Shown piece by piece: positions 156 through 47,775 of a stretch of 64,000 nt of DNA (position 1 is its first letter; the number at the start of each line of letters is the position of its first letter). This DNA is from Candidatus Parcubacteria bacterium (lineage in GTDB: Bacteria > Patescibacteriota > Minisyncoccia > UBA6257 > HR35). The stretch spans positions 350,858 to 414,857 of the forward strand of contig BPJG01000001.1 in the NCBI GenBank assembly GCA_026004495.1. The letters run 5' to 3'. A model generated the notes under the pieces. It saw only the letters and a list, made by a program, of their open reading frames with translations, was not told where the DNA came from and searched no databases. The translations under genes and the position numbers were made by a program.

Positions 156-1403
156 TTATAAACCACCCCCTGGTCTTTGTTGAAAGCCCTTTTCAATTTG
201 ACTGCTAATTTGTTGATAAATAGGAATAACTATTGAGACAGCTAAAAGACCAACTACCAAACCTACAAAAATTATTAATGCTGGCTCAATTAAGGTAGTT
301 AAATTCTTTACACTGAATTTAAATTCTTCTTCATAATAATTTTGCAAAATTTCCAAAACTTCAATTATCTTACCAGTTTCTGAGGCAATACCTAAAATGC
401 CGACAAAAAACTTAGGAAAAACAATTTCTTGGTTAATACTTTCATTGAAATTATAACCCTGTTCAATTCTTTTATTTACTCTAATTAAGGCTTCTTTAAT
501 TTCTGGATGATTAATAACATAAGTTGTTAATCCGATTGCCTTTGAAAGAGAAATACCACTTTTTAAAAGTGATTCCAAGATAAAACATAAAGTTCTTAAA
601 TTTAATGTTAATAAGATATTTTTAATAATTGGAATTTTAAAACTAATTTTTAGGATGAATTGTCTACCTAATTTAGAAGTAATTAGAAAAAAAAGGAAGA
701 TTATTGATAATAATAAAATTAAAAGTATTAATTTAATATTATTGCCAATAAAAATACCGGCATCTAAAATAATTTTAGAATAAAAAGGCAGTTCGGTTTC
801 CATTTGATTAACTAAATTAGCTAAACGAGGTATAACAAAGGTTGTAATTATTATGATTACTAAAAAAGTTATAATTAAAATAATCATTGGATAAATCAAC
901 ATAGAAATAATTTCTGATTTTATTTGCTTTTCTTTAGTAAGGTCTTCGGATAACTTTTCAAACGAATTAACTAAATTACCAGAAATTTCTCCTATTTTTA
1001 TTATTTCTATTTCAATAGGATTAAAGCTATTTTTATAATATTCGAAGGCTTCATAAATATGACCACCTTTTTCAATATAATAAATTAAAAACATCAAGAA
1101 TTCTTTTAAGCTTGAATATTTTATTGAATGGGTTAAAATTTTCAAACCTTGAATTAAGCTTGCACCAGATTTAAGTATTAAAGCTAAATTTCTATATAAA
1201 AGTATTTTATCTTTGAGGTTTATAACTGTTAAAAATTTAAACAACGAAATAAAAATTTTTATTTCTTTTTTTTCTTTAATTTTGATTAAGCTCAAGTTAT
1301 ATGATTTAAGATAGTTACTAATTTCTATTTCTGATTCACCCAATATTTTACCCTTATGAATTTTACCATTAGGATCAAAAGCTTCAAAATAATAAAATTT
1401 CAT
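156..1403 (-). CDS. pilC: Type IV pilus assembly platform protein PilC (GspF family)
   Basis: 415-aa polytopic membrane protein with the GspF/PilC family layout of two cytoplasmic repeats plus TM segments. It lies immediately downstream of the PilB ATPase gene on the same strand. Confidence 0.75.
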   Translation of the reverse strand: MKFYYFEAFDPNGKIHKGKILGESEIEISNYLKSYNLSLIKIKEKKEIKIFISLFKFLTVINLKDKILLYRNLALILKSGASLIQGLKILTHSIKYSSLKEFLMFLIYYIEKGGHIYEAFEYYKNSFNPIEIEIIKIGEISGNLVNSFEKLSEDLTKEKQIKSEIISMLIYPMIILIITFLVIIIITTFVIPRLANLVNQMETELPFYSKIILDAGIFIGNNIKLILLILLLSIIFLFFLITSKLGRQFILKISFKIPIIKNILLTLNLRTLCFILESLLKSGISLSKAIGLTTYVINHPEIKEALIRVNKRIEQGYNFNESINQEIVFPKFFVGILGIASETGKIIEVLEILQNYYEEEFKFSVKNLTTLIEPALIIFVGLVVGLLAVSIVIPIYQQISSQIEKGFQQRPGGGL

Positions 1404-1411
1404 TTTTATAT

Positions 1412-3121
1412 TTATTCTCTTATAACCCTTAAAATTTCTTCTAAGGTAGTAATACCAACGCTTAATTTATCCAACCCATCTTGAAACATAGTTTTATAAT
1501 TTTTATTTTTAAGTAAATTTTTGAATTCAACAAGATTAAAATCTCTTTTAGATAAATAATCAGCTAAATCATCATCAATAAAAAATAATTCAAATATTCC
1601 CGACCTACCATGATAACCTGAATAATTACATAAATCACAACCTTTGCCCTTAAAAACATAATGAGGAATATCATAATTATTGGCCTCTTCTTCGCTTAGA
1701 CCATCTTTAATTAATTGTTCTTTAATAGTTTCTAATTGATAAGTTTTTAATTCACTAGAATAAATGCAGTTTAGACATATTTTTCTTACCAATCTTTGAG
1801 CAATAACAACACTTAGGGTTGATGCTATTAAATATTTTGGAATATTTAAATCTAATAATCTTGGTATAGAAGAAATAGCATCATTAGTGTGGAGTGTTGA
1901 TAATATTAAATGACCCGTTAATGCAGCTTGAATAGCAATATCTGCCGTTTCATAATCTCTAATTTCTCCTACCATAATTATGTTAGGATCTTGCCTAAGT
2001 AATGATCTTAATCCTTCAGCAAATGTTAAATTTATTTTAGTGTTTACTTGCATTTGATTAATTCTATTAAGTTCATATTCAATTGGATCTTCAATAGTGC
2101 AAATATTTATCTCGGGAGAATTTAATATTTGCAAAATAGTATAAAGAGTAGTTGTTTTACCTGATCCAGTTGGCCCTGTAGAAATTATCATCCCATATGA
2201 TTTTTTAATTGCTTTAATTAATAAATTCTCATGGTATTCATTTAAACCTAAATCACTTAATGATGTTGGCTTAAAGGTAGATGCTAATAGCCTTAGTACG
2301 GCCTTTTCTCCATAGAGAGTTGGGATAATCGATACTCTAACATCGAATTCAAAATCACCTATTTTTGTTTTAAATCTTCCATCTTGAGGTCGAAAATGTT
2401 CATCTATTTGTAAGTTAGATAAAATTTTTATTCGAGCAATTAATGATGAATGAATAATTTTTGGTAATTTCATTATCTCTTTTAAAATTCCATCTACTCG
2501 AAATCTAATCAAGCTATATTCATAAAATATTTCTATATGGATATCGGAAGCATTTAAACCAACTGCATAATTTAAAATATTATTAATTATTTTTATAGCG
2601 GAAACATTTTGGGCTTCTTCGTTTAGGTTAGAAATATTTTCTATTTTAGAAACTTCAATTTTTAATAATTCTTCATATTCCTCTTTATAAATTTTTTGAT
2701 AGAATATTAAACCCAAACGCATTTCATCTTCTAAAATTAAATAAGGTTCTATTTTTTTATGAGTGAGGTTAGCTATTAAACTAATGGTTTCGTAATCAAC
2801 AGGATTAACCATAGCTAAATGTAATATTTCCCCATCATCTTTAAAGGGAATAATCTTTTTATCTAAGGCAATTTTTTCAGGTATAAGTTTTAAAACTTTA
2901 GTTGGGATAGATAGATTCTTTAAATTTATTCTTTTGACACCTAGATAATTACTTAAAATGTTAGCATAATATTCTTTATCAAGAAGTCTTTTATTGAAAA
3001 GAATATCCAAAATATTTAAATTTAATTTTTTTGCCTCTTGATAAACTTCTGTAAATGTATTTTCATCTATGAGATTATTATTTATTAATAATTTTTTTAA
3101 TTCCTCTATTGAGATAATCAT
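1412..3121 (-). CDS. pilB: Type IV pilus assembly ATPase PilB (GspE family)
   Basis: Walker A GPTGSGKTT, the conserved Asp box and His box, and a tetracysteine motif (CLNC...CDLC) typical of GspE/PilB secretion ATPases. Length is 569 aa. Confidence 0.85.
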   Translation of the reverse strand: MIISIEELKKLLINNNLIDENTFTEVYQEAKKLNLNILDILFNKRLLDKEYYANILSNYLGVKRINLKNLSIPTKVLKLIPEKIALDKKIIPFKDDGEILHLAMVNPVDYETISLIANLTHKKIEPYLILEDEMRLGLIFYQKIYKEEYEELLKIEVSKIENISNLNEEAQNVSAIKIINNILNYAVGLNASDIHIEIFYEYSLIRFRVDGILKEIMKLPKIIHSSLIARIKILSNLQIDEHFRPQDGRFKTKIGDFEFDVRVSIIPTLYGEKAVLRLLASTFKPTSLSDLGLNEYHENLLIKAIKKSYGMIISTGPTGSGKTTTLYTILQILNSPEINICTIEDPIEYELNRINQMQVNTKINLTFAEGLRSLLRQDPNIIMVGEIRDYETADIAIQAALTGHLILSTLHTNDAISSIPRLLDLNIPKYLIASTLSVVIAQRLVRKICLNCIYSSELKTYQLETIKEQLIKDGLSEEEANNYDIPHYVFKGKGCDLCNYSGYHGRSGIFELFFIDDDLADYLSKRDFNLVEFKNLLKNKNYKTMFQDGLDKLSVGITTLEEILRVIRE

Positions 3122-4263: not shown

Positions 4264-4992
4264 ATGCATAACAATAGCTCATTTAAAAAAGAGAATTTTT
4301 TTCTTATTATTTTAGGAATAATAGTAATTTTTTTCTTAATTTATTTTTTAGGTAGCTTTAATATAAATAAAGTTAAAATTGGTAATTTTGGTAATAAAGA
4401 AAACCTAGATAGAATAAAAGAAACCAGCGTTGATATAAATACAATCTTAGGCAATTTACCTCCATTGGGCAATCCTAACGCTCCTATAAAAATAGTTGAG
4501 TTTGGTGACTTTCATTGTCCTTACTGCACTCAAGTACCCGAATTAATCTACAAGCCATTACAACAATATATCGATAATAATTTAGTCGCAATTTATTTTA
4601 GAGATTTTCCTCTTGATCAGATACATCCCTTTTCTCGAAATGTTCATTTGGCAAGTAGATGTGCTAATGAGCAAGGAAAATATTGGGATTTTCATAAAAA
4701 AGCCTTTGAAGATTTTAATAATGGCTTAGGCCAAAAAACTGGAGATAAAGATTATTTATTTAATTTAGCAAAAAATCTTAATTTAGATGAAAATAAATTT
4801 AAAGAATGTTATGAAACCAAAAAATATGAAAATGATATAAATAACGATTATATTCAAGGAACTCAATTAGGAATTCAAGGAACTCCAGGGTTTTTTGTTA
4901 ATAATTTATTTATTGCTGGTCTTGATGTAGAATCAATAAATAAGGCTATCAATTTATTATTAGGAAATAATTTAAGTAATAGTAATAATTAA
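4264..4992 (+). CDS. DsbA-like thiol:disulfide oxidoreductase (thioredoxin fold), membrane-anchored
   Basis: N-terminal TM helix and a CPYC active-site motif within FGDFHCPYC, a thioredoxin/DsbA-family signature. It is located next to the pilin gene. Confidence 0.65.
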   Translation: MHNNSSFKKENFFLIILGIIVIFFLIYFLGSFNINKVKIGNFGNKENLDRIKETSVDINTILGNLPPLGNPNAPIKIVEFGDFHCPYCTQVPELIYKPLQQYIDNNLVAIYFRDFPLDQIHPFSRNVHLASRCANEQGKYWDFHKKAFEDFNNGLGQKTGDKDYLFNLAKNLNLDENKFKECYETKKYENDINNDYIQGTQLGIQGTPGFFVNNLFIAGLDVESINKAINLLLGNNLSNSNN

Positions 4993-5293: not shown

Positions 5294-5746
5294 ATGGTGA
5301 ATATTGTTAATCGAGGTATTGATTATCGTTATAAAATATTAGATAAATTTGAAGCCGGTATTAATCTTAAGGGCTTTGAAGTGAAATCCTTAAGAAATAA
5401 TAGGGGCAGTCTAAATGGTAGTTATATTTCCATTAAATATGGTGAAGTTTATCTTATAAATTTTCAATTACCGCCTTATCAACCTAAAAACGTTCCCAAA
5501 GATTATGATCCCAATAGACCTCGAAAGTTATTATTAAAAAAGAATGAAATAATTTATTTAACTACTAAAATAAAAGAGAAAGGATTAACAATAATTCCCT
5601 TAAGAATTTATTCTAAAAATAATTTAATTAAAATAGAAATTGCCTTAGCTAAAGGATTAAAGAAGTTTGAAAAGAGAGAAAAAATAAAAGAAAAAGAATT
5701 TAAAAAAATTAAAAACAAGATTGAAAAAACAAGAATAATTATTTAA
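5294..5746 (+). CDS. smpB: SsrA-binding protein SmpB
   Basis: 150 aa with the SmpB-family N-terminal core and a basic C-terminal tail. It sits directly upstream of a tmRNA gene. Confidence 0.8.
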   Translation: MVNIVNRGIDYRYKILDKFEAGINLKGFEVKSLRNNRGSLNGSYISIKYGEVYLINFQLPPYQPKNVPKDYDPNRPRKLLLKKNEIIYLTTKIKEKGLTIIPLRIYSKNNLIKIEIALAKGLKKFEKREKIKEKEFKKIKNKIEKTRIII

Positions 5747-5774: not shown

Positions 5775-6112
5775 GGGGATGAATTGGATTTCGAGGCGGA
5801 AAAGAGATAAAGAAGGCTAACGGTAAAAGCCCGCCTTAGTGGTTATAAAAAGTGCAAACCAACCTCTTGCCTACGCTGTTAGTTAAAGTAGGGCTCTGGA
5901 GAAAGTTTGTTGGATTCTTTCTTCAGGGTGATAAATAATCCAACTTGAATTAAAGAAGTTGACTAGCTTCTTTAATTGACACCAATAATAGTCTATCTCC
6001 AATTCATTTTGTAGGTTTTAAAGAATTGGGGTGAAAATTAAAAAAACCTACTATGTTAGTAGAATTCTTTATCAATTTTCCGTCGACGGGGGTTCGATTC
6101 CCCCCATCTCCA
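5775..6112 (+). ncRNA. ssrA: tmRNA (ssrA), standard one-piece form
   Basis: The 5' end GGGGATGAATTGGATTTCGAGGCGG and the 3' end GGGGGTTCGATTCCCCCCATCTCCA give a tRNA-Ala-like acceptor/T-arm with a G3:U70 pair. A candidate tag ORF runs from GCA at 5854 to TAA at 5884-5886 and would encode ANQPLAYAVS. It is adjacent to smpB, and no CCA is encoded. Confidence 0.8.
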
Positions 6113-6144
6113 AATTTATTTTGGAGTTTTAATTTTAAATTATT

Positions 6145-8145
6145 TTATTGAGGAGAATAAAGAATTAAACCAGTAGTTGTACTAATTATAATTTCTATTG
6201 GTCTTTGGCTAACATCATATCTTCTCCCATATTGATCGTTATAGATATCAAAATTATACCCAGGTGGTTCACTATTATTTGATAATATATAAGTAAATGT
6301 TGAGTTTATTGATGTATTGACTAAAACTAATCCATTTTCATAATTTCTTTTATACAAAGCTCCATTATTAAAATTAGAAGTTGAAGCTATTACTAATTCA
6401 TCTATACTATTTACTGGCAAAGGATTTCCCAGGGGTAAATATAAAGATTGGGGATAACATTGAGGCGTATTATAACTAGATTCATCTGAAATACTATAAT
6501 AATTATTTTTATTATTGGTTAGATAAAAAGATGAAACTATATAATTAGTGAGCTTATCATTATTATTACAATTTTGGTTGAAATTAATCTTGGTAATTGA
6601 AATAATAATATCATAAACCTTATTTTCAATTAAGGTTTTAAATTGTTTATGTATACTTTGAGGATTATTGTTAAAATTTAATGAAAGTTTTTCATTCAGA
6701 TATCCATTAGTAAATTTAATTTGAGTATACCAATTTCCCTCGCTATTAGGTTCATCGGCGTTGGCATAGATATGGTAGCCTAAATTTCCAAAATAATTAA
6801 TATAGGATGCCAATGATTTCTTAAGAATATTAAGAAATATTGGTTGATATATTTGTCTAGCTAAAATTGGATTACTGTAACCAGCAACTTCAAATAAATC
6901 AAATCCTAAAAAATCAGTTCTTAACAAAGAATCACCTTGAGATAATTTATAATACCTTAAAAAAGTTTTAGAAATAATATCAGCTGATTGAGAGAACAAT
7001 TTTATTCTTAAATGCCTTAGATGATAAGGCCAGGCATTATTTTGATTATTTGTATTTTCGATTAGTTCGGGATAAAGTGAAGTTGGATGAATTCTTTTTA
7101 TAATATTATTTAAATCTGAGCTACTGGTAGCAATACAAATTCTATCTATATACTCTAAAATATTTCCATCACTCCAGCTACGACAATATAAAGGATCATA
7201 ATCAAAATTATGAACACCTCTTAATAATATTGTCGAAAGAAAATATGTTACCCTTTTAAAATTATTATTTAAATATTTAACAATTAAAGAAATATTGTCT
7301 TCTTCTCCCCACCAAGCATCAGCCTCTAAATATAATTTAATAAAATCGATATTATATCTATTGCAATTGTTATATGAGCAATATTGATTTATTTCAGCAA
7401 ATTTTAGAGAAGAAATAGGTTTACTTGGGATGGTTAGGCAATTATTATTCCTATAAGCATAAAATCTAAAATCGTCTAGCCATATATTTCCTAGATATGG
7501 TTGGGTTGTAGAGTTAAATCTTATATAAATATAATTATCAATTCTTAATATTGAATTTGTTGTTGGTAGAGTAGCTGTTGCTATAATTAATTGCCAATCA
7601 TTATTTAAGTTAAAATCTCTATTTATAATATTTAAAATAGAATTTGTGGTACTAGCATTAACAATTAGATTAACTTTTATATTGTTAGGATTATCAGTTT
7701 TAATCATAAATTTAATTTCTATAACATCACCTGTCTTAGGATAATAATTTTTAGTTTCATTGCTGATATAAGGATAATCGGTATAGAGGCTATTTAACAA
7801 TCTAAAGGCAGTATTGAAATTTTGATTTGCTCTTTTATTAATTTTAGCCCTTAAACTACCTCTACTAAAATTGTTATTATAATAATTATTTCTATCTATA
7901 TCTAATTTAACATAAACTCCGTTTGTTTTAGATAAATGCCAACCTGCTGGTTTGCCTATGAGAGTATCTAAATAAAATTTTTTAGCTTCATTATTATCTA
8001 TTATTTCAAATTCTCCTATGCCTCCAGTGAAATTAAGGCATTGGTTATTATTTTGAGCAAAAATAAAGTAATTGCTGGGAATTAATAATAAGGATAAGAA
8101 AAAATAAAATATAGATAGCTTAAACATATATATTAATTTACTCAA
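6145..8145 (-). CDS. Secreted protein of unknown function (signal peptide; possible N-terminal carbohydrate-binding-like beta-sandwich)
   Basis: 666 aa with an N-terminal hydrophobic signal sequence, Asn-rich composition, and no recognisable catalytic motif. It lies immediately downstream of the giant surface-protein gene, overlapping it by 8 nt. Confidence 0.5.
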   Translation of the reverse strand: MSKLIYMFKLSIFYFFLSLLLIPSNYFIFAQNNNQCLNFTGGIGEFEIIDNNEAKKFYLDTLIGKPAGWHLSKTNGVYVKLDIDRNNYYNNNFSRGSLRAKINKRANQNFNTAFRLLNSLYTDYPYISNETKNYYPKTGDVIEIKFMIKTDNPNNIKVNLIVNASTTNSILNIINRDFNLNNDWQLIIATATLPTTNSILRIDNYIYIRFNSTTQPYLGNIWLDDFRFYAYRNNNCLTIPSKPISSLKFAEINQYCSYNNCNRYNIDFIKLYLEADAWWGEEDNISLIVKYLNNNFKRVTYFLSTILLRGVHNFDYDPLYCRSWSDGNILEYIDRICIATSSSDLNNIIKRIHPTSLYPELIENTNNQNNAWPYHLRHLRIKLFSQSADIISKTFLRYYKLSQGDSLLRTDFLGFDLFEVAGYSNPILARQIYQPIFLNILKKSLASYINYFGNLGYHIYANADEPNSEGNWYTQIKFTNGYLNEKLSLNFNNNPQSIHKQFKTLIENKVYDIIISITKINFNQNCNNNDKLTNYIVSSFYLTNNKNNYYSISDESSYNTPQCYPQSLYLPLGNPLPVNSIDELVIASTSNFNNGALYKRNYENGLVLVNTSINSTFTYILSNNSEPPGYNFDIYNDQYGRRYDVSQRPIEIIISTTTGLILYSPQ

Positions 8146-11100
8146 ATGTACAATCTAATATTTTATTAAATTCTTTAATAGTATTTACTCCCATAATACC
8201 TGTTGGTTTTTTAACTTTAAGGTATAATCTTTGAAACTTCTTTACTGAATTAATTGTTCTAATATTATATTTAGTTATTTCTTTATTTTTTGAACCAGGG
8301 CCAGTTTTAGCGATTAAAGTTTTATTATTTGAATTTAATATAATCTGGAGATATTTAATATTATTATTAGTAATTCCTGGTCTTATCTTTTTAAGGGGAA
8401 ATCTAAAATTACTTGGTATTTTTGATTTAATATAATCAAAATCAAAATCTTTATATTTAATGCATATATTATCCTCTTGAGTTTTTTCAAACTCTTCTGA
8501 ACTGGTAGTTGTTTGTAAATTTTGAGCTAAAAGATTTAATAATAAAAGTAAGTTATTTTGTTCTTGGTTTGCAGTTTCTCCATCTTCACCATCTCCACCA
8601 CTACCTCCACCACCTCCACTACTACCACCTCCACCACCTCCACTACTACTACTATCATTGTCAACAATATTAACATTAACATTACTTATTTGAATATTAT
8701 TATAGTTATTGTCTGTTGAAGAAGCAGAATGGCTAATAACTACACTATGATTACCTTCAGCTATACTATCATTAACTGCAGTTACATTAATAGTTTGATT
8801 AATATTCCAATTAGTTGGAGTAAAGACTAAGGTAGAAGTATTAGTTTGAATTTGAGACGAATTATAGGTTAACCTAATTATTACATTACTTGTTGGAGCT
8901 GAAGTTAACCTAAGATTGTAACTACTACCCTCTCCTCCTTCAGTAACAGTGATACTTGTTGGATTAACACTTACTCCACTACTATCATTATCAACAATAT
9001 TAACATTAACATTACTTATTTGAATATTATTATAGTTATTGTCTGTTGAAGAAGCAGAATGGCTAATAACTACAGTATGATTACCTTCAGCTATACTATC
9101 ATTAACTGCAGTTACATTAATAGTTTGATTAATATTCCAATTAGTTGGAGTAAAGACTAAGGTAGAAGTATTAGTTTGAATTTGAGACGAATTATAGGTT
9201 AACCTAATTATTACATTACTTGTTGGAGCTGAAGTTAACCTAAGATTGTAACTACTACCCTCTCCTCCTTCAGTAACAGTGATACTTGTTGGATTAACAC
9301 TTACTCCATTACTATCATTATCAACAATATTAACATTAACATTACTTATTTGAATATTATTATAGTTATTGTCTGTTGAAGAAGCAGAATGGCTAATAAC
9401 TACAGTATGATTACCTTCAGCTATACTATCATTAACTGCAGTTACATTAATAGTTTGATTAATATTCCAATTAGTTGGAGTAAAGACTAAGGTAGAAGTA
9501 TTAGTTTGAATTTGAGACGAATTATAGGTTAACCTAATTATTACATTACTTGTTGGAGCTGAAGTTAACCTAAGATTGTAACTACTACCCTCTCCTCCTT
9601 CAGTAACAGTGATACTTGTTGGATTAACACTTACTCCATTACTATCATTATCAACAATATTAACATTAACATTACTTATTTGAATATTATTATAGTTATT
9701 GTCTGTTGAAGAAGCAGAATGGCTAATAACTACAGTATGATTACCTTCAGCTATACTATCATTAACTGCAGTTACATTAATAGTTTGATTAATATTCCAA
9801 TTAGTTGGAGTAAAGACTAAGGTAGAAGTATTAGTTTGAATTTGAGACGAATTATAGGTTAACCTAATTATTACATTACTTGTTGGAGCTGAAGTTAACC
9901 TAAGATTGTAACTACTACCCTCTCCTCCTTCAGTAACAGTGATACTTGTTGGATTAACACTTACTCCATTACTATCATTATCAACAATATTAACATTAAC
10001 ATTACTTATTTGAATATTATTATAGTTATTGTCTGTTGAAGAAGCAGAATGGCTAATAACTACAGTATGATTACCTTCAGCTATACTATCATTAACTGCA
10101 GTTACATTAATAGTTTGATTAATATTCCAATTAGTTGGAGTAAAGACTAAGGTAGAAGTATTAGTTTGAATTTGAGACGAATTATAGGTTAACCTAATTA
10201 TTACATTACTTGTTGGAGCTGAAGTTAACCTAAGATTGTAACTACTACCCTCTCCTCCTTCAGTAACAGTGATACTTGTTGGATTAACACTTACTCCAGG
10301 ATTATTACTTATTCCTGTAGGATTATAATCAAAAAAGACCAAGTTCTTATTTGAAAAATCATAGTTATTTATCGAACCGTAGGATATGCTTTCAAAATTT
10401 CCTCCTAAATATAATTTTCTTGAGCTAGTACTAAAAGCTATTGAATAAATATTAAAATCTGGGAAAATTGCATCATAAGTAAAATTTATTTCTGAGGGCG
10501 TGTAGGTGGCAATTAAAAATCCTAATTGACCCCTGGTGTAAAGTTCATCAAAAAATCCTGAAACAAAAAGTATATTATTTTGACTATCATTTTTAATTTT
10601 AATTACAGGTAAATTTGGATATTCCATATAATTTAAATTTACTGGTGAAAGATTATTTTTATTTAAAGTGGCTAAATATTTATTAAATTTACCACCAACG
10701 AACAATAGATTATCTTCTGGATCTATGCTAATCGTATTAACTAAATCATTTATATTGGATTGAGCTAATAATATAGGACTAGAGGTTGCTCCTATAGAAG
10801 CCAAATAAGAAACATTTTGATTTAATACTCTATTAAATCTGCCGCCAATATATAAAACTCCAGTTGATTCATCAATAACACAATCATTAACTACATCATT
10901 AACAATACCGCTATTTCCATTTATAAAATTATTATCTAAAGTACCAGAACTAGCATTTATTTTTGCTACATATTTATATTTATTCTCATTATTTATTTTA
11001 GAAAAATAGCCACATAAAAATAGTTTATTATTAATCTTATCTAACGTTAAGGCTGAGATAAAATCTCCTGTTGTTGTTGAAAAGGTATAGTTGAAATCAT

Positions 11101-12640
11101 TTATTATGGTATTATTAGTGGTATTAATTGCTGCAAAAAATATTCTATCTTGGTTATTAATTTTTGTAAATGGTCCAGCTATGTATAAATAATTATTATT
11201 AGGGTTATAAAGAAGAACATCAACTGGGTTATTTGGTTCAATATTAAAATTAGTAATTAAGTTTAAATTTCTATCAAAGGCAGCCAAATATTTTTTATAA
11301 ACTCCATTATAGGAATAAAATCTCCCACCAATAAATAAATTACCATTATTATCTAATTTCAAAACATTAACTCTATCGCTTAGTTTTAAATCAGAAATAG
11401 AGGTTATTAAATTTCCAGAGGTTGCATTGATAGCTCTGAAATAATACCTATCACTTGCACTTGTGGCATTAAATGATCCACTAACATATAAGATTCCATT
11501 ATTTTTGTTTAAAGCTAAAGATAGAACTGAATCAACATCAGAATTGTCTCGATTTAGCGAAGAAGAAAATGTATTTATCATCGAACCATTTATAGCATTA
11601 AGGGCAGCAACATAAACAGAAGGAGTAGCAAACCTTCCGCCTATATATAAATAATCATCATTAGGGTTATTAGGGGTATTAAAGTCATTATATTCTAAAG
11701 CCAAAACAACATAATCTAATGAATTGCCAGCTGGATTAAAGCCAGTTATTATACTACCATTTGTTGAAGAAACAGCAGCTAAATATCTTTTAGGTGAAGT
11801 AAAATAACCTCCTACATATAATATATTAGAATCAGGAGATAATAAAATAGTCCAAATGACATCATTAAATGAATTATTGGAATTAAAACTTTCATTTACT
11901 GTTGAGGTTGAATTAGTTGAAAAATTTATAGCAGCTAAAAATTTTTTATTGGAAATAATATTGGTTAAATTATTTTTTATCCAGATAAATTGTCCTCCAA
12001 GATATAAAGTATTAGTATTAGGATGAACTGCTAAAGAAAATACGTAGTCCTCTAGTTCAAAATTAAAGGTATTAACTAAGCGGGGATTATTTAAATCAGA
12101 AATATCAATAGCTGATAAATACTTTCTTGTTAAATTATTTACTGACTGGAATGCTCCTCCAATAAAAAGAATATTATTTTTTAAAGCTAAAGCGTAAACA
12201 GTATCATCAATATTTAAGTTAAAATTACAATTTACTCTTCCTGATTGATCTATATAGGCTAATTTTCTTACCTCACAATTACCTACTTTGAAAAAATCAC
12301 CACCAATAAACCAACCATTGTTATATGGTATAGCTGTCCAAACAGAACCTTCTATTTTATCAATTAAATCAAAAGTTGTATTCTGAGATGTTCTTAAAAT
12401 AAATCCATTTCCCCTATAAGGACCTAAATAAGTAAAATTACCTCCTATATAAACTTTATCATTAGCAACTTCAATAGTATTTATTGAACCGTTAGGCACC
12501 CAATTTAAATTAAACTTTTGAGAAGTTAAATTAGCCCAAGTTAAATTAAATAAAAATATATTAAATAAAAAGAAAATAAAAATCATTATAAAAAACTTCG
12601 TTAAATTTTTTAATTTATTTAAAAATTTTTTTAATTTCAT
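8138..12640 (-). CDS. Giant cell-wall-anchored surface protein: signal peptide, beta-propeller (delta-60-like) repeats, 5 x 110-aa tandem Ig-like repeats, Gly/Ser linker, C-terminal peptidoglycan-binding domain
   Basis: 1500 aa. The N-terminal signal is MKLKKFLNKLKNLTKFFIMIFIFFLF. About 12 recurrences of LY[IV]GG[xF]F over residues 60-700 (LYLGGQF, LYVGGYF, LYIGGRF, LFIGGRF and others) indicate beta-propeller blades. Five perfect 110-aa repeats follow (GVSVNPTSITVTEGGEGSSYNLRL...VTAVNDSIAEGNHTVVISHSA...), then a poly-Gly/Ser linker. The C-terminal ~90 aa match the PG_binding_1 pattern (IKYLQIILN...TGPGS...TKYNIRTINSVKKFQ...TGIMGVNTIKEF). Confidence 0.8.
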   Translation of the reverse strand: MKLKKFLNKLKNLTKFFIMIFIFFLFNIFLFNLTWANLTSQKFNLNWVPNGSINTIEVANDKVYIGGNFTYLGPYRGNGFILRTSQNTTFDLIDKIEGSVWTAIPYNNGWFIGGDFFKVGNCEVRKLAYIDQSGRVNCNFNLNIDDTVYALALKNNILFIGGAFQSVNNLTRKYLSAIDISDLNNPRLVNTFNFELEDYVFSLAVHPNTNTLYLGGQFIWIKNNLTNIISNKKFLAAINFSTNSTSTVNESFNSNNSFNDVIWTILLSPDSNILYVGGYFTSPKRYLAAVSSTNGSIITGFNPAGNSLDYVVLALEYNDFNTPNNPNDDYLYIGGRFATPSVYVAALNAINGSMINTFSSSLNRDNSDVDSVLSLALNKNNGILYVSGSFNATSASDRYYFRAINATSGNLITSISDLKLSDRVNVLKLDNNGNLFIGGRFYSYNGVYKKYLAAFDRNLNLITNFNIEPNNPVDVLLYNPNNNYLYIAGPFTKINNQDRIFFAAINTTNNTIINDFNYTFSTTTGDFISALTLDKINNKLFLCGYFSKINNENKYKYVAKINASSGTLDNNFINGNSGIVNDVVNDCVIDESTGVLYIGGRFNRVLNQNVSYLASIGATSSPILLAQSNINDLVNTISIDPEDNLLFVGGKFNKYLATLNKNNLSPVNLNYMEYPNLPVIKIKNDSQNNILFVSGFFDELYTRGQLGFLIATYTPSEINFTYDAIFPDFNIYSIAFSTSSRKLYLGGNFESISYGSINNYDFSNKNLVFFDYNPTGISNNPGVSVNPTSITVTEGGEGSSYNLRLTSAPTSNVIIRLTYNSSQIQTNTSTLVFTPTNWNINQTINVTAVNDSIAEGNHTVVISHSASSTDNNYNNIQISNVNVNIVDNDSNGVSVNPTSITVTEGGEGSSYNLRLTSAPTSNVIIRLTYNSSQIQTNTSTLVFTPTNWNINQTINVTAVNDSIAEGNHTVVISHSASSTDNNYNNIQISNVNVNIVDNDSNGVSVNPTSITVTEGGEGSSYNLRLTSAPTSNVIIRLTYNSSQIQTNTSTLVFTPTNWNINQTINVTAVNDSIAEGNHTVVISHSASSTDNNYNNIQISNVNVNIVDNDSNGVSVNPTSITVTEGGEGSSYNLRLTSAPTSNVIIRLTYNSSQIQTNTSTLVFTPTNWNINQTINVTAVNDSIAEGNHTVVISHSASSTDNNYNNIQISNVNVNIVDNDSSGVSVNPTSITVTEGGEGSSYNLRLTSAPTSNVIIRLTYNSSQIQTNTSTLVFTPTNWNINQTINVTAVNDSIAEGNHSVVISHSASSTDNNYNNIQISNVNVNIVDNDSSSSGGGGGGSSGGGGGSGGDGEDGETANQEQNNLLLLLNLLAQNLQTTTSSEEFEKTQEDNICIKYKDFDFDYIKSKIPSNFRFPLKKIRPGITNNNIKYLQIILNSNNKTLIAKTGPGSKNKEITKYNIRTINSVKKFQRLYLKVKKPTGIMGVNTIKEFNKILDCTFE
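8648..10297 (-). repeat. Five head-to-tail tandem repeats of 330 bp inside the giant surface-protein gene
   Basis: The 10-mer tcaacaatat recurs at 8661, 8991, 9321, 9651 and 9981 within long identical blocks, giving an exact period of 330 bp. Copies differ at only a few positions (for example ccact versus ccatt). Confidence 0.9.
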
Positions 12641-13610
12641 TCCAAATTTCTTTTTTTAATTTATTATCTTGCTTTAATTGTTCTCGAGCTGATTGAAAAC
12701 TGCTACCTAATTTTATATCTCCAAAAAATAAACTTGTGCCAACCCTTTTTATTATTCCACATTTTTCTGCTAAATTCAATAAATCAGCTTCATAAGATAT
12801 ACCCTCGCCATAATATATTTCAATTTCAGCTGTCTTAAATGGTGGTGCCACTTTATTTTTTACTATCCTTGCTTTTACCTTTATACCTATAATTTCATCA
12901 GCTCTTTTAATTTGGCCTATTTTTTTTAATTCAATTCTAACAGAAGAATAAAATTTTAAAGCTTTTCCTCCAGGAGTTGTTTCTTGAGCTCCAATGATTG
13001 CTCCTATTTGAGCTCTAGTTTGATTAAGAAATATTAAAATTGTCTTTGTTTTTGATATTAAGGCAGTTAATTTTCTTAAAGCTTGCGATAATAATCTTGC
13101 CTGTAAACCAATAAAATGATCACCAATTTCTCCCTCTAATTCAGCCTTAGGAGCTAAAGCAGCAACTGAATCAACGACAATTACATCAAATAATCCAGAT
13201 TTTACTAATTTCTCAACTAAATTTAAGGCATCCTCGCCCGAATCAGGTTGAGAAATAACTATTTTTTTGATATCAACGCCAATTCTTTTAGCATATTCAG
13301 GATCCAAAGCATGTTCAACATCAATAAAAGCAACATTACCTCCATTTTTTTGAGCTTCGGCTATTGTTTCTAATGCTAAAGTTGATTTTCCGCTTGATTC
13401 AGGGCCAAAGATTTCTATAATTCTACCTCGAGGTAAACCACCAACTCCTAAAACTAAATCTAACGAAGGAGATCCGGTTGAAATTGTTTCTACATTAACC
13501 TTAGGCACTGATTCTAAGGTCATTACAGTTCCTTCACCAAATTCTTTTTGTAATTCTTGAATTAAATTTTCTAAATTATTAGATTTCGTTTCACTTTTTT
13601 TCTTATTCAT
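12615..13610 (-). CDS. recA: Recombinase RecA
   Basis: 331 aa with Walker A GPESSGKST and the RecA L1/L2 loop regions. A strongly conserved RecA core is present, for example ALDPEYAKRIGVDI. Confidence 0.95.
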   Translation of the reverse strand: MNKKKSETKSNNLENLIQELQKEFGEGTVMTLESVPKVNVETISTGSPSLDLVLGVGGLPRGRIIEIFGPESSGKSTLALETIAEAQKNGGNVAFIDVEHALDPEYAKRIGVDIKKIVISQPDSGEDALNLVEKLVKSGLFDVIVVDSVAALAPKAELEGEIGDHFIGLQARLLSQALRKLTALISKTKTILIFLNQTRAQIGAIIGAQETTPGGKALKFYSSVRIELKKIGQIKRADEIIGIKVKARIVKNKVAPPFKTAEIEIYYGEGISYEADLLNLAEKCGIIKRVGTSLFFGDIKLGSSFQSAREQLKQDNKLKKEIWNEIKKIFK

Positions 13611-13651: not shown

Positions 13652-14068
13652 TTAAAATTTGATATCCCAAATATCTGTTTCTTGGCTGAATGAATTTTCA
13701 AAATCTGTTAATTCTTCATTAACATATTCATCGTCAGCAATATTTTTAGGGCCAAAAATTATATTTTCAGCAATTATTTCTGTTATCGATTTTTTTTGCC
13801 CATCTGGAGTTAACCAGTTGCGATAATGAATTCTACCTTCAACAAAAATTAATCTTCCTTTATTTAAAAAATTTTTACATGTTTCAGCCAATTTTCCCCA
13901 GACAATAATTCGATGAAATTCTGTTTCTTTTATATTTTGATTATTTTTATCTTTATAAATACGATTAGTGGCGATGTTTAAGATAGCTATTTGAGTTCCA
14001 TTGTTAGTAATTTTAAAATCTATCTCTTGAACTAATCTTCCTATTAAAAATACTTTGTTAAGGTTCAT
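13652..14068 (-). CDS. ssb: Single-stranded DNA-binding protein
   Basis: 138 aa with an OB-fold core (MNLNKVFLIGRL...FHRIIVWGKLAE...GRLIFVEGR) and an acidic C-terminal tail ending DIWDIKF. It is in the conserved rpsF-ssb neighbourhood. Confidence 0.85.
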   Translation of the reverse strand: MNLNKVFLIGRLVQEIDFKITNNGTQIAILNIATNRIYKDKNNQNIKETEFHRIIVWGKLAETCKNFLNKGRLIFVEGRIHYRNWLTPDGQKKSITEIIAENIIFGPKNIADDEYVNEELTDFENSFSQETDIWDIKF

Positions 14069-14095: not shown

Positions 14096-14407
14096 TTAAT
14101 TGTTTATCTCGGTTAATTTTTCTTTTAAAGGAACAGATTTTCTTTTGATAATTAAAAATCTTAAAATTCTTGAAATATTTTTTAATTCTTTGTTTATTTT
14201 TTCTAAATTCTCGTTTTTTTCCAATTTAAAAACTAAATAGCCAAAATAGCCTAAGGTTTGTTTTTTAATTGAATAGCTTAAATTTCTTTTTTTGGGACTC
14301 TCTTCTAAAATTATCTCTGCTTCATATTTAGTTAAGATTTTCTTTATTTTTTCTAATTCTTCTTCTAATTTACTTTCAATATTTAACCAATAACCAAGTT
14401 CATACAT
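14096..14407 (-). CDS. rpsF: 30S ribosomal protein S6
   Basis: 103 aa. The S6 family pattern is present (YE...RNLSYSIKKQTLGYFGYLVF corresponds to the R.LAYPI.K...Y segment). It is immediately upstream of ssb, as in most bacteria. Confidence 0.7.
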   Translation of the reverse strand: MYELGYWLNIESKLEEELEKIKKILTKYEAEIILEESPKKRNLSYSIKKQTLGYFGYLVFKLEKNENLEKINKELKNISRILRFLIIKRKSVPLKEKLTEINN

Positions 14408-14454: not shown

Positions 14455-14570
14455 GCCTTGCGGTACCTACTCTCGCGCCTAAATTGGCACTACCATCGGC
14501 ACTTAGCCGTTTCACTTGCCTGTTCGGAATGGAAAGGAGTGGTTCCAGCTAAGTTATGCAACCACAAGGC
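14455..14570 (-). rRNA. rrf: 5S ribosomal RNA
   Basis: The reverse complement reads GCCTTGTGG...CCGAACAGGCAAGTGAAACGGCTAAGTGCCGATGGTAGTG...GCGAGAGTAGGTACCGCAAGGC. Universal 5S loop motifs (CCGAAC, GTGAAAC, CCGATGGTAGTG, GAGAGTAGG) are present and the helix I termini pair. Length is about 116 nt. Confidence 0.85.
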
Positions 14571-30040: not shown

Positions 30041-30520
30041 ATGGAGTTAGAAGTTTTTATAGAAATTTCAAAAAATAGTTCCGTTAAATACGAATTTGAT
30101 AAAGAAAAAAATATATTGAAAGTAGATAGATTTTTGTATACTGCAATGTTTTTTCCTTTCAATTATGGTTTTATTGTTGATACCCAGGGAGAAGATGGAG
30201 ACCCTGTTGATGCTTTAATTTTATCTGAATTTTCAATTTTACCCGGAAGTTTAATTAAATGTCAACCAATCGGAGGTTTAGAGATGGAAGATGAGTCAGG
30301 TAATGATGAAAAAATAATTGTTGTCCCCTTAGATAAAATTGATCCATTTTGGTCTAAATATAAAAGTATTAATCAATTAGAAGAAAGTTATAAAAATAAA
30401 ATTAGACATTTCTTTGAAAATTATAAAACTCTTGAACCTAATAAATGGGTAAAGATAAATAATTGGTTTGATTATGATAAAGCTGTTGAAATTATTAAAA
30501 AATCTCTTATTAAAAAATGA
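30041..30520 (+). CDS. ppa: Inorganic pyrophosphatase (family I)
   Basis: 159 aa with the family I signature DGDPVDALIL and conserved acidic residues. Confidence 0.85.
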   Translation: MELEVFIEISKNSSVKYEFDKEKNILKVDRFLYTAMFFPFNYGFIVDTQGEDGDPVDALILSEFSILPGSLIKCQPIGGLEMEDESGNDEKIIVVPLDKIDPFWSKYKSINQLEESYKNKIRHFFENYKTLEPNKWVKINNWFDYDKAVEIIKKSLIKK

Positions 30521-33500
30521 TTAATTTTCATAAAATTGAAGAAAAAATATTGAAATTTTGGAAAGCTCATAATATTTTCGAGAAAAGTGTTGAGGCTAAT
30601 AAAATGAATAAACCATTTGTTTTTTTAGATGGGCCTCCATTTGCTAATAATAAACCTCATATAGGACATTTTTTAACTAGAATTTATAAAGATATAATTT
30701 TGAGGTTTAAAACAATGACTGGTTATTATGTTGAAAGAAGGGCAGGTTGGGATACCCATGGTTTACCAATAGAAATTGCTACTGAAAAATCCTTAGGTTT
30801 TTCTAGTAAAAAAGAAATTTTAAGTTATGGTATTGAAAAATTTAATCAAAAATGTAAAGAATTGGTTATGAAATATAAAGATCAGTGGGAGTATTTTGAT
30901 GAAATAAGTGGTTTTTGGATAGATCATCAAAGAGCTTATATTACTTATGATCCTTATTATATGGAAAGTTGTTGGTGGATAATTAAAAAAATATATGATC
31001 AAGGATTTTTAAAAGAAGAATATAAAGTTTTTCCCTATTGTCCCAGATGTGAAACTGTTCTTTCTCAAGCTGAAGTTGGTCAAGTAGATGCTTATAAAAA
31101 AATTAAAGATCCTGATTTATATGTTAAATTTAAATTAAAAAACAGACAAAATGAATATTTTTTGGTTTGGACCACTACTCCATGGACTTTAATTTCTAAT
31201 TTAGCTTTAGCAATTAATCCAGAATTTGATTATAGTTTATACGAAATCGAAGATAAAAAATATTGGGCAATAGAAGGAATTGAAAAAAAACTTGAATTAA
31301 TGTCTAAAAAAAATATAAGACTAATAACGACCACAAAGGGAGAGAACCTTATTGGCTTAGAATATGAACCACTCTTTAAGTTGGTAAAATTAGAAAATTA
31401 CGATAATTGCTATAAGGTTTATCCAGCTGATTTTATTAGTAAAGAAGAAGGAACAGGAATTGTTCATATAGCCCCAGCATTTGGTGAAGAAGATTTTGAA
31501 TTAGGTAAAAAATATAATTTACCCATATTTAATCCTATTGATACTAATGGACGATTTAACTCAGATGAACCTCAGCCAATTATTGATGATATCAATAATC
31601 TTTTCTTTAAAGAAGCTAACTCATTAATTATTAATTATTTGAATAATCTAAATCTAATTTTTTACTATGATTTAGAAGGATATGAACATGATTATCCTCA
31701 TTGTTGGCGTTGTAAGGAGCCATTAATTTATTATAGTACTAAAAATTGGGTGATTAAAGTATCAAAGTTTAATAAAAGATTAATAGAATTAAATAAAAAA
31801 ATTAATTGGGTATCTCCAGAAATAAGTAATCGTTTTTTTGAATGGTTAAAAGAAGGGAAAGATTGGAATTTATCTCGTAATCGTTTCTGGGGAATACCCT
31901 TGCCTATTTGGAGATGTGAAACTTGCGGTTCTATAGAGGTTATTTCAAGTTTAAAAGAATTGGGAAATAAATTCAAATCTAAAAATAATTATTATTTTTT
32001 AAGGCACGCTGAAGCATATAGTAACCTCAAGGGTATATTATCTTCTTATCCTGAATTATTTTTCAATCCCCTAACTTACAAGGGCATTAAGCAAGTAAAC
32101 TCTCTTGTTAATAAAATAAAAAATTTAAATATTGATTTGATAATAACTTCTCCACTTTTAAGAGCTAAACAAACAGCAGAAATAATTGCTCGAAAATTAA
32201 ATTTGCCTGTTTTGATTAATTTTGACTTAAGAGAAATTGATTTTGGAAATTTTAATGGTAAATCAGAAAAAGAATATCAAAATTTAATTAAAGATCAATT
32301 TCAAGAATATTTTGTTAAACCTACAGATGGAGAAAATTTAATTGAAGTTAAAAGAAGAATGATTAAAGTTATTTTAGATTTAGAAGAAAGATATGATAAT
32401 AAGAATTTTTTGATAATTTCCCATCAAGATCCCCTTTGGACCCTATTTGGAGAAATGCAAGGATTATCTATTGAACAAACTATTAATACTAAAGAATTTA
32501 TTCTTAAATTAGGTGATCTTAAAAAGGTAGAATTTTTAATTTTGCCTCGTGATGAAGAGGGAGAAATAAATATTCATCGACCCTATGTTGATAATTTTAT
32601 TTGGAAATGCAAGTGTGGTGGTTTTAAAAAAAGAGTTGAAGATGTAATTGATATTTGGTTTGATTCTGGCAGTGCGACCTTTTCTTCTGTCCATTATCCC
32701 TTTGAAAATAAAAAAGAAATTGACGAAGGGAAAAAATTCCCAGTAGATTTTATTGTTGAAGGCGTTGATCAAACCCGTGGATGGTTTTATACTCTATTAA
32801 CTGTAGGTTACTTAGTAAAAAAAGAAATATCTTATCGTAATGTAGTTTCATTAGGTTTAGTTTTAGATAAGAATGGAAGGAAAATGTCTAAATCTTTAGG
32901 TAATACTATTGATCCATTTGAGGCAATCGAAAACTGGGGTAGTGATCTTTTAAGATTTTATTTTTGTTATGTTAATGAATCGGCTGATAATAAAAAATTT
33001 GACGAGAAGTCATTATCCAGCTTAAGAAATAATTATTTCAATATAATTTTAAATATCTTAAATTTTTATCGAATGTATAATGATCCAAATAAAATAAGAA
33101 TTACAAAAAGCAATTATTTATTAGATAAATGGTTTGATATAAGGTTTAGGTTAGCTTACTATAATATTTTTAATTATTTAGATAATTATAATCTTAATAA
33201 AGCAAGCAGAGAGCTTGTTGATTTAGTTGATGATTTCTCTCGTTGGTGGCTAAGAAGAAGTAGAAATAGGTTTCAAAGGCCAAAGAATAAACTTGAAAAA
33301 AATATTGCTCTCTCTAAATTAGAAGATTATCTTTTAAATTTAGCAATTATTTCTGCGCCCCTTAATCCTTTTTTTAGTGAATATCTTTATCAAGAAATGA
33401 AAAATGAAATTAAAGATAAAAGAAAGGGTAAATTAAGTGTTCATTTAGAAAAATTAAATCTACCTCAAAAAATTTCAACTAAAGAATATGAAATTTTAGA

Positions 33501-34011
33501 GAAAATGAAAGAAATAAGAGAAATTACTTCAATAATTTTGATGATGAGAAAATCAAATAACCTTAAAATAAGACAACCCCTTAATGATGTTTATATAGCC
33601 AAAAAAATACCTGTAGAATTTTTAGATATTATTAAAGAAGAAGTTAATGTTAAAAATATTTATCTTGGAGAACCACATAATAAAGAAAATTATTTGATAA
33701 CAGATAAACCAGTAAATATTTATTTAAACAAATTAATAACACCTCAACTTAAAGAGGAGGGTATAACTAATGATTTTATTAGATATTTGCAGGATTTAAG
33801 ACAAGACTTAGGATTAATACCAGCTAAAAAAGTGAACGTCCATTTGATTATTAATAACAATAATTTAAAAAAAATAATTTTTCGAAATATCAATAAAATC
33901 CAAAGAGAAACTAACACTAAAATATTTTTTAATAAATCCAAAAAATTTAAATTAGAAAGGGATTTTAATTATGATAATTTTGGTAAGGTAATTATTTTTG
34001 TTGATTTTTGA
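30517..34011 (+). CDS. ileS: Isoleucyl-tRNA synthetase (type 2-like) carrying an inserted histidine-phosphatase domain
   Basis: HIGH motif (PPFANNKPHIGH), an IleS-like N-terminal core (WDTHGLPIE), a CP1/editing region, the WRCETCGS zinc-binding segment, WFDSGS, and KMSKS (GRKMSKSLGN). Between the zinc-binding segment and WFDSGS lies a block of about 190 aa with phosphoglycerate-mutase-family motifs. Confidence 0.85.
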   Translation: MINFHKIEEKILKFWKAHNIFEKSVEANKMNKPFVFLDGPPFANNKPHIGHFLTRIYKDIILRFKTMTGYYVERRAGWDTHGLPIEIATEKSLGFSSKKEILSYGIEKFNQKCKELVMKYKDQWEYFDEISGFWIDHQRAYITYDPYYMESCWWIIKKIYDQGFLKEEYKVFPYCPRCETVLSQAEVGQVDAYKKIKDPDLYVKFKLKNRQNEYFLVWTTTPWTLISNLALAINPEFDYSLYEIEDKKYWAIEGIEKKLELMSKKNIRLITTTKGENLIGLEYEPLFKLVKLENYDNCYKVYPADFISKEEGTGIVHIAPAFGEEDFELGKKYNLPIFNPIDTNGRFNSDEPQPIIDDINNLFFKEANSLIINYLNNLNLIFYYDLEGYEHDYPHCWRCKEPLIYYSTKNWVIKVSKFNKRLIELNKKINWVSPEISNRFFEWLKEGKDWNLSRNRFWGIPLPIWRCETCGSIEVISSLKELGNKFKSKNNYYFLRHAEAYSNLKGILSSYPELFFNPLTYKGIKQVNSLVNKIKNLNIDLIITSPLLRAKQTAEIIARKLNLPVLINFDLREIDFGNFNGKSEKEYQNLIKDQFQEYFVKPTDGENLIEVKRRMIKVILDLEERYDNKNFLIISHQDPLWTLFGEMQGLSIEQTINTKEFILKLGDLKKVEFLILPRDEEGEINIHRPYVDNFIWKCKCGGFKKRVEDVIDIWFDSGSATFSSVHYPFENKKEIDEGKKFPVDFIVEGVDQTRGWFYTLLTVGYLVKKEISYRNVVSLGLVLDKNGRKMSKSLGNTIDPFEAIENWGSDLLRFYFCYVNESADNKKFDEKSLSSLRNNYFNIILNILNFYRMYNDPNKIRITKSNYLLDKWFDIRFRLAYYNIFNYLDNYNLNKASRELVDLVDDFSRWWLRRSRNRFQRPKNKLEKNIALSKLEDYLLNLAIISAPLNPFFSEYLYQEMKNEIKDKRKGKLSVHLEKLNLPQKISTKEYEILEKMKEIREITSIILMMRKSNNLKIRQPLNDVYIAKKIPVEFLDIIKEEVNVKNIYLGEPHNKENYLITDKPVNIYLNKLITPQLKEEGITNDFIRYLQDLRQDLGLIPAKKVNVHLIINNNNLKKIIFRNINKIQRETNTKIFFNKSKKFKLERDFNYDNFGKVIIFVDF
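31975..32545 (+). other. Embedded histidine phosphatase (PGAM/His_Phos_1-like) domain within IleS
   Basis: YFLRHAEA corresponds to the RHG catalytic His motif. LTYKGIKQ, IITSPLLRAKQTAEIIA (the SPLxRAxxTA motif) and LIISHQDPL (the second catalytic His) follow in the canonical order and spacing of branch-1 histidine phosphatases. The IleS sequence resumes in frame after it. Confidence 0.7.
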
Positions 34012-46112: not shown

Positions 46113-46261
46113 TAATATTTTCTATTAAATCAAGCAATTAAAATAAAAAATTTTCTAATTAAACATTTAATATTCATTAAAGGTTGTTCATTAAAAGGTT
46201 TTTTATTATCCGGGTTAAGTTCAGCTATTTAAAGAATTATTTTTTCTTATTTTAAATAGAA

Positions 46262-47775
<1,514 letters not shown>

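Follow-up and report, generated by a model that had tools for sequence, protein, structure and literature searches.

A 1500-residue protein encoded next to recA in a thermophilic Parcubacteria bacterium: a candidate wall-tethered fibrillar surface protein with a stalk of near-identical repeats

What kind of protein is encoded by a 1500-codon gene whose start lies within the end of recA and which carries five nearly identical copies of a 330-bp unit? The question is raised by a stretch of 64,000 nucleotides (nt) from a Candidatus Parcubacteria bacterium (contig BPJG01000001.1, positions 350,858 to 414,857), called here the window and numbered from its first letter. Public databases already contain the identical 1500-aa protein, under the name 'hypothetical protein KatS3mg094_347 [Candidatus Parcubacteria bacterium]', from a contig of 634,165 bp. 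With moderate confidence, we favour the view that it is a Sec-exported, monomeric, wall-tethered surface protein of the fibrillar, Periscope type. Its parts are the following:

8138..12640, minus strand: complete coding sequence, 1500 aa and stop, ATG start (KatS3mg094_347; open reading frame call and deposited protein)
12533..12640, minus strand: predicted Sec signal peptide, aa 1-36 (read from sequence)
10298..12532, minus strand: beta-propeller head, aa 37-781, 14 blades (Pfam, motif count, AlphaFold2, Foldseek)
8648..10297, minus strand: stalk, aa 782-1331, five tandem Calx-beta-type beta-sandwich domains of 330 bp or 110 aa
8468..8647, minus strand: flexible linker, aa 1332-1391 (low AlphaFold2 confidence and sequence)
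8141..8467, minus strand: divergent PG_binding_1-type domain, aa 1392-1500 (profile-profile comparison, AlphaFold2)

An earlier note on this stretch, made from its letters, had described the reading frame and an architecture of signal peptide, propeller region and Gly/Ser hinge. The frame is confirmed on the minus strand, and this architecture is supported by sequence, Pfam, motif and repeat evidence.

The stalk is delimited by Tandem Repeats Finder as 5.0 copies of period 330 with 99% matches at 8650-10298. In register, the copies are placed as follows:

9968-10297, minus strand: first copy
9638-9967, minus strand: second copy
9308-9637, minus strand: third copy
8978-9307, minus strand: fourth copy
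8648-8977, minus strand: fifth copy

Copies 1-3 are 100% identical DNA. The fourth has one nucleotide change (N to S) and the fifth three (T to S, one silent, N to S), two residues being different; the most diverged copy is the one at the 3' end of the array. The earlier count of five 330-bp repeats thus stands, and their supposed identity holds for the first three. Since the copies are 99-100% identical at the DNA level, only 0-3 nt apart, slippage or unequal recombination must have amplified the array, or homogenised it, in the very recent past, in agreement with what had been proposed from the letters. Among 5.8 billion proteins, none exceeded 62% identity, and an exact 34-nt repeat probe hit no other contig in the metagenomes of the Joint Genome Institute. 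Orthologues have other stalks (see below), and the five-copy amplification therefore took place after the split from the nearest known relative, with its 62% identity.

The previous description of the repeats as Ig/Calx-like is borne out both by sequence and by predicted structure. The whole protein matches Calx-beta (PF03160) with 55.7 bits in five stretches, above the gathering score of 27. AlphaFold2 predicts one repeat as a confident beta-sandwich (predicted local distance difference test, pLDDT, 93-98), for which the best Foldseek match in the PDB is CALX-CBD1 (3ead; E 6e-6, target TM-score 0.72, root mean square deviation (rmsd) 2.9); NCX1 CBD1 and CBD12 are also among the matches, and NCX1 CBD12 is the best PDB match by sequence profile, with a weak E of 0.034. 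The repeat shares its beta-sandwich fold and a C-terminal 'V-x-I-x-D-N-D' motif with Calx-beta domains such as CBD1/CBD2 of the Na+/Ca2+ exchanger and those of bacterial Calx-beta repeat adhesins; it differs from them in aligning with just the second half of the Pfam model and in its use as a stalk module. Residues E13, D106 and D108 are invariant or nearly so among 12 related repeats, which does not imply their equivalence to the Ca2+ ligands of CBD1. The junction between repeats (…VDNDSN-GVSV…) is short and compatible with a rod. As a separate observation, the best match of the repeat in BFVD (predicted viral structures) is a siphovirus tail protein domain (A0A8S5TWL1; 29% identity, rmsd 1.4 Å, 108 columns), a model-based similarity which hints that phages have this Calx-like module as well.

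Export is predicted from the N-terminus, where a K-rich n-region, a hydrophobic core of 18 aa and a T-W-A cleavage motif followed by N can be read from the sequence. A small-residue -3/-1 motif is also readable in four relatives (P0002, P0004, P0005 and P0006). Its recurrence favours cleavage, and topology as an N-terminal signal anchor was rejected on this ground; a lipoprotein was rejected as well, the first Cys being found only at residue 122. Cysteines display a suggestive distribution. Within each of the pairs Cys122/Cys138 and Cys543/Cys587, cysteine is present at both positions or at neither in 10/10 aligned orthologues, and Cys1393 and Cys1497 are invariant across the tail subfamily, a pattern as would be expected of disulfides. 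Together with the signal peptide and a nearby syntenic DsbA-like gene, these paired cysteines suggest an extracytoplasmic location.

In the head, the blade motif [LIVFWM][YFL][LIVF][GASC][GS]x[FM] (LY[IV]GGxF-type) can be counted 14 times from aa 63 to aa 743, at intervals of 45-62 aa, instead of the about 12 blades first estimated. When isolated (aa 37-790), the head matches the Rax2 C-terminal propeller (PF12768) with 54.6 bits in six stretches and DUF5122 (PF17164) with 28.3 bits, above the respective gathering scores of 28.8 and 27. Neither family is reported in the whole-protein Pfam scan; head homologues, of which there are hundreds at E<1e-40, carry the same families in precomputed annotations. 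The previous label 'delta-60/SBBP-like' has to be replaced by these two related families. Indeed, TIGR02608 (delta-60; cutoff 76.5 bits) matches neither the whole protein nor the isolated head, even at E<=10, and SBBP (PF06739) is absent among head matches at E<=10. In a control, TIGR02608 gave 606 bits on P0117 and missed the relatives P0002, P0009 and P0015. The AlphaFold2 model of the head, built with nine orthologues, has a mean pLDDT of 83.3 and a predicted TM-score (pTM) of 0.64, and its best Foldseek matches in the PDB are double seven-bladed propellers (2ymu, 1nr0 and BT4663, 4a2l) over 700-800 columns. The blades are therefore likely, according to this model, to form two seven-bladed propellers.

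The C-terminal domain had been assigned to PG_binding_1, and this assignment survives in part: the direct PF01471 scan is negative, whereas kinship with members of the family is supported by profile comparison. In hhalign, the tail subfamily aligns with the tails of nine orthologues or paralogues, 9/9 of which pass PF01471, at 99.1% and E 5e-19 over 87 columns. A hidden Markov model made from those nine tails only, the tail subfamily being excluded, scores 49 bits on aa ~1404-1495. The merged profile retrieves solved peptidoglycan-binding domains (5tv7, 5nm7, phiKZ gp144 3bkh and the Zn DD-peptidase 1lbu at E 5e-8 to 1e-6; E 5e-8 to 1e-5 when CtpB and SleB are included), unlike the narrow tail-subfamily profile, which finds no meaningful sequence match in the PDB. 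An exhaustive search with the tail profile yielded 2972 relatives. The ten nearest non-orthologous profile matches pass PF01471 without exception (10/10), and the domains which accompany it there are unrelated ones (M23 peptidase, beta-helix, ice-binding-like, Big and laminin-G). Finally, AlphaFold2 predicts the tail with a pLDDT of 94-98 and places three main helices at the expected motif positions. These comparisons argue for a divergent PG_binding_1 domain, homologous to bona fide members.

The predicted helical tail exhibits the same pattern, G-x(4)-V-x(2)-LQ ... T-x(2)-AV-x(2)-FQ ... G-x(4)-T, as the PG_binding_1 modules found in cell-wall hydrolases (phiKZ gp144, Streptomyces Zn DD-peptidase, SleB, CtpB). 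It departs from them by a KTGPGSKNKE insertion, two extra N-terminal helices and a conserved Cys pair, by the lack of the aromatic-Gly 'FG' motif and in having no catalytic domain attached. Since this divergent subfamily escapes Pfam in these AT-rich genomes, wall-tethered proteins may be under-counted there. The protein had also been called 'peptidoglycan-anchored', a term that cannot be kept in its covalent sense, while 'peptidoglycan-binding' is warranted. No LP.T[GAS] (LPXTG) motif is present anywhere in the 1500 aa, which end in ...ILDCTFE, and no other covalent sorting signal accompanies the predicted non-covalent peptidoglycan-binding module. A covalent LPXTG/sortase anchor was rejected for lack of this motif; attachment would thus be a matter of non-covalent binding, not of anchoring.

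Between stalk and tail, the linker comprises in order a Gly/Ser-rich tract, an acidic/polar stretch and a conserved Leu-rich short helix (aa ~1362-1376, 8513-8557). At the DNA level, the Gly/Ser hinge consists of short repeats in frame (8587-8649). In the AlphaFold2 model, the linker (residues 116-167 of the model) has a pLDDT of 37-54 and a single short helix, at 143-150; we predict from this that it is disordered apart from the Leu-rich helix. This helix (NNLLLLLNLLAQNLQ), which lies between the Gly-rich linker and the peptidoglycan-binding domain and is modelled with low confidence, has a counterpart in all orthologues, even in the distant P0009-P0012 (LRLWLLQFVNQLL). It could serve in oligomerisation or packing.

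Which end of the protein is displayed? The strongest argument comes from the combinations of head and tail across phyla. Among the 120 best matches sharing the head, 47 carry a type IX secretion system (T9SS) sorting domain, mostly in Bacteroidota where the source names the organism, and nine carry PG_binding_1, three of these being named Parcubacteria or Patescibacteria by the source. As the same head is joined in different phyla to a T9SS C-terminal domain or to PG_binding_1, the C-terminus appears as an interchangeable surface-retention part, the tail being the probable self-anchor and the head the part displayed.

The proposed mechanism follows from this orientation. The signal peptide would be cleaved and the C-terminal PG_binding_1-type domain would hold the protein non-covalently on the producer's own peptidoglycan. 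The disordered Gly/Ser-rich linker (~60 residues) and a rod of five Calx-beta-type domains would project the head outward from the wall. A typical Ig-like domain is ~4 nm long, from which we estimate a rod of ~20 nm. The 14-blade head, probably 2 x 7, would be the ligand-binding tip; in this lineage, the obvious candidate for the ligand is a component exposed on the surface of a host or partner. Unequal recombination or slippage between the 330-bp units would add or remove steps of 110 aa without frameshift. A role in host attachment is plausible. It is a reasonable guess because cultivated Patescibacteria are all episymbionts according to one preprint (bioRxiv 10.1101/2024.11.25.624915), and because genes for secreted proteins with peptidoglycan-binding domains (PGBD) rank with the most strongly expressed ones in Paceibacteria attached to a host (PMC10936435). 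The earlier note, by calling the protein a strong candidate for a host-attachment adhesin, put this somewhat too firmly.

Several points weigh against this reading. For the tail, PF01471 (gathering score 23 bits) misses both the whole protein (E<=0.1) and the isolated C-terminus of 150 aa (E<=10), a failure which the insertion, the extra helices, the Cys pair and the missing 'FG' motif probably explain; the Foldseek lists (PDB, BFVD) of the two-domain model are filled with beta-sandwich matches and contain none for the helical domain, and peptidoglycan binding by this subfamily is itself a prediction. For the stalk, a single repeat alone reaches 21.2 bits, below the cutoff of 27, and covers only positions 61-119 of the 119 of the Calx-beta model. 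The other four of the five head models have a pLDDT of 63-68, and TM-scores of the head to double propellers are only 0.37-0.47, so that its global arrangement is uncertain; moreover, we know of no ligand or function for the DUF5122/Rax2-type propeller family. Copy-number variation within the population is something we infer from the identity of the repeats rather than observe. Lastly, this is a syntenic core gene beside recA and not part of a variable region, which fits a housekeeping role in the envelope as well as it fits a host-specific adhesin.

This last point calls for a closer look at the locus, whose other members are the following:

12615..13610, minus strand: recA, directly upstream (Pfam RecA, 397 bits)
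13652-14068, same orientation as the 1500-aa coding sequence: ssb
14096-14407, same orientation as the 1500-aa coding sequence: rpsF
6145..8127, minus strand: downstream 660-aa secreted protein (KatS3mg094_346), with ATG at 8127, 10 nt past the stop of the 1500-aa gene
5775-6113, plus strand: transfer-messenger RNA (tmRNA), directly adjoining smpB
5294-5746: smpB
4264-4992, plus strand: DsbA-like thioredoxin, nearby, synteny kept in orthologous loci
156-3121, minus strand: type IV pilus/type II secretion system ATPase (T2SSE, 401 bits) and platform protein (T2SSF), neighbourhood kept in orthologous loci

Related Parcubacteria contigs from other samples display the order rpsF-ssb-recA-gene-(about 640-660-aa gene)-smpB-glutaredoxin-DsbA...T2SSE/T2SSF, and the orthologue start abuts or overlaps recA in each locus (L001/L006, L002/L003, L004/L005). 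Head identity among the orthologues is 37-64%. Their stalks differ as follows:

P0009-P0012: no domain
P0007, P0008: one IPT-like domain
P0004: two IPT-like domains
P0002: two 'choice-of-anchor Z' IPT-like domains and one Calx-like domain
P0005, P0006: one IPT-like and two Calx-like domains, the latter diverged from each other
KatS3mg094_347: five near-identical Calx-like domains

The idea, already voiced in the earlier note, that the stalk is the variable feature is in line with these same-locus orthologues, whose stalks range from none at all through IPT-like domains alone to a mixture of these with one or two Calx-like ones.

The protein could nevertheless be a housekeeping envelope component without host contact, such as a wall scaffold, an S-layer spacer or a binder of polysaccharide or nutrients, the repeat amplification being neutral. 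We judge this unlikely. The gene belongs to a conserved core locus (rpsF-ssb-recA-gene-smpB) in related Parcubacteria, apparently in one transcription unit with recA; its head is moderately conserved, to a degree atypical of fast-evolving determinants of host specificity; and propellers of the same class are found in free-living bacteria of many phyla. On the other hand, a head-stalk-anchor layout together with a stalk that differs between orthologues is a hallmark of fibrillar adhesins and Periscope Proteins, the episymbiotic habit reported for the cultivated Patescibacteria in the preprint cited above argues for partner contact, and the neighbourhood includes, in conserved synteny, the type IV pilus ATPase and platform gene, whose counterparts Saccharibacteria use for host contact.

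Another possibility, which we hold to be quite improbable, is a reversed polarity in which the protein is released, or held otherwise, and the PG_binding_1 tail grips the host wall as the adhesive end. A part in host attachment has been proposed for the peptidoglycan-binding domains of highly expressed secreted Paceibacteria proteins (PMC10936435). Neither a membrane anchor nor a lipobox nor LPXTG otherwise fixes the protein to its producer, and PG_binding_1 is also common on secreted lytic enzymes attacking foreign walls, for example endolysins. Yet two cells cannot be bridged by a protein that has no further attachment, an enzymatic domain is lacking, and a C-terminal position past a long flexible linker, as the tail has it, is typical of modules for wall retention. 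In other phyla, the T9SS domain joined to the same head retains proteins on the surface of the producer, pointing to the C-terminus as self-anchor. In addition, the window holds two genes for MreB, one for MreC and one for a PBP2-type transpeptidase, so that the tail would find peptidoglycan to bind in the producer itself.

As to the reliability of the array, KatS3mg094 corresponds to the metagenome-assembled genome mg094 (Patescibacteria) from 52 °C Katase hot-spring sediment, assembled by metaFlye from >Q20 PacBio HiFi reads whose N50 is 10.5 kb (Kato et al. 2022, PMC9671151). This N50 being several-fold longer than the 1.65-kb array, a collapse of the short-read type is unlikely, and the worry expressed on this point in the earlier note is largely moot. 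Long identical tandem repeats are a classic cause of mis-assembly and a mixed-population consensus could mask length variants and homogenise copies, but we consider it highly improbable that the five copies are an artefact of assembly or polishing hiding fewer, more or more diverged ones, given the accuracy and length of these reads, the precisely in-frame array, a pattern of differences as in a real array (interior copies identical, 3'-terminal copy most diverged) and orthologues in which this domain occurs once or twice at the corresponding position.

The favoured reading of a wall-tethered fibrillar protein makes the comparison with known systems of interest. Like Periscope and fibrillar adhesins (SasG, Aap, Rib/alpha-C, Sgo0707; Whelan et al., PMC8201768, PMC9704523), KatS3mg094_347 is a single chain with an N-terminal head, a predicted C-terminal wall-attachment module and a stalk of individually folding beta-sandwich domains with near-identical DNA, allowing length steps of whole domains. 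Periscope Proteins are defined by length change through highly identical tandem domains (PMC9704523), a definition matched here save for length variation at the strain level: repeat number varies from strain to strain in that class, whereas here only stalk differences between species are seen. Moreover, the Parcubacteria protein would be attached non-covalently, by a PG_binding_1-type domain after a disordered linker, instead of by LPXTG/sortase or type I secretion, its head is a 14-blade propeller and not a known adhesive domain, and the organism is uncultivated and thermophilic.

Two other groups of proteins show partial resemblance. DUF5122/Rax2-type (delta-60-like) propeller surface proteins of Bacteroidota and other phyla have the same LYxGGxF blade type and a long multi-blade head. 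They mostly end in the T9SS sorting domain PF18962, whereas the Parcubacteria protein ends in a peptidoglycan-binding domain; unlike delta-60 proteins, neither this protein nor the tested orthologues are matched by TIGR02608. The PGBD proteins of Paceibacteria (Ca. Yanofskyibacterium, Ca. Minisyncoccaceae; Kuroda et al. 2024, PMC10936435) come from the same bacterial class, are secreted and bear a domain for peptidoglycan binding, and a function in attachment to the host has been proposed for them; Ig-like domains occur in further secreted proteins with high expression in that study. The PGBD proteins were chosen by expression, and their likeness to KatS3mg094_347 is one of description.

Every part of the protein thus belongs to a known family and its layout to a known class, that of fibrillar adhesins and Periscope Proteins, and current concepts are unchanged. 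What is new is the combination, in a thermophilic Parcubacteria bacterium, of a Rax2/DUF5122-type double propeller with a periscope-like Calx-beta stalk and a divergent PG_binding_1 tail; the conserved recA-adjacent locus and a tail subfamily escaping Pfam are also new. How Patescibacteria outside Saccharibacteria recognise and hold their hosts is poorly understood, and candidate surface proteins are usually left 'hypothetical'. The 1500-aa gene offers a concrete and testable candidate, with a head-stalk-linker-tail layout, a conserved position and a species-specific stalk. We may speculate, quite tentatively and with more doubt than confidence, that the array expands and contracts within the thermophilic Parcubacteria population, cells then differing in how far the head reaches past the wall and tuning host contact in this way. 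If true, Patescibacteria would have a Periscope mechanism too, a non-covalent peptidoglycan-binding tail replacing sortase anchoring, and the widespread DUF5122/Rax2-type propeller would gain a first role, as a head for cell-cell contact.

The gene borders deserve some further remarks. The earlier claim of a 26-nt overlap with the recA 3' end, in the order rpsF-ssb-recA, is confirmed by the coordinates and the RecA match: the first 26 nt of the 1500-aa coding sequence cover the end of recA, including its stop. No alternative TTG or GTG start is found inside this overlap, where the Leu codons are all TTA. Met19, the one other candidate for the start, was considered and rejected, for it would lose the charged Lys-rich n-region. 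No terminator-like site was detected from rpsF to the end of the 660-aa gene. The promoter scan was uninformative at 26% GC, with 76 sites against 60 expected.

The downstream gene had been described as encoding 666 aa and overlapping the propeller gene by 8 nt. Its start is most likely the ATG at 8127 rather than the TTG at 8145, giving 660 aa (MFKLSIFYFF...) with a canonical signal peptide, as in the deposited KatS3mg094_346; with this start, the two genes are separated by 10 nt and do not overlap. The 660-aa protein has no Pfam or NCBIfam match, and its relatives form six clusters only among the 5.8 billion proteins. The gene is kept next to the propeller gene in L001/L006 and L002 and is absent in L004/L005; its product may be a functional partner of the propeller protein. 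In the P0005 locus (L002, 1695-5840), rpsF is preceded by two more genes, of 659 and 636 aa, for which no Pfam match is recorded. Their size is close to that of the 638-aa gene that follows the propeller gene there and, by this alone, they could be paralogues of the 660-aa family.

Other features of the window are of independent interest. A 5S rRNA gene (14455-14569, minus strand) stands alone beside rpsF; with the 16S rRNA gene (46255-47777, minus strand) 32 kb away, there is no linkage of the rRNA genes. A 512-aa protein encoded at 48770-50308 on the plus strand, possibly also extracellular, carries a lamin-tail domain (LTD, 53.5 bits). At 30517-34011 on the plus strand, an 1164-aa class I aminoacyl-tRNA synthetase, similar to isoleucyl-tRNA synthetase, IleRS (tRNA-synt_1, Anticodon_1, DUF5915), contains within the synthetase a His_Phos_1 histidine-phosphatase domain (116 bits, aa 493-655), an unusual insertion or fusion.

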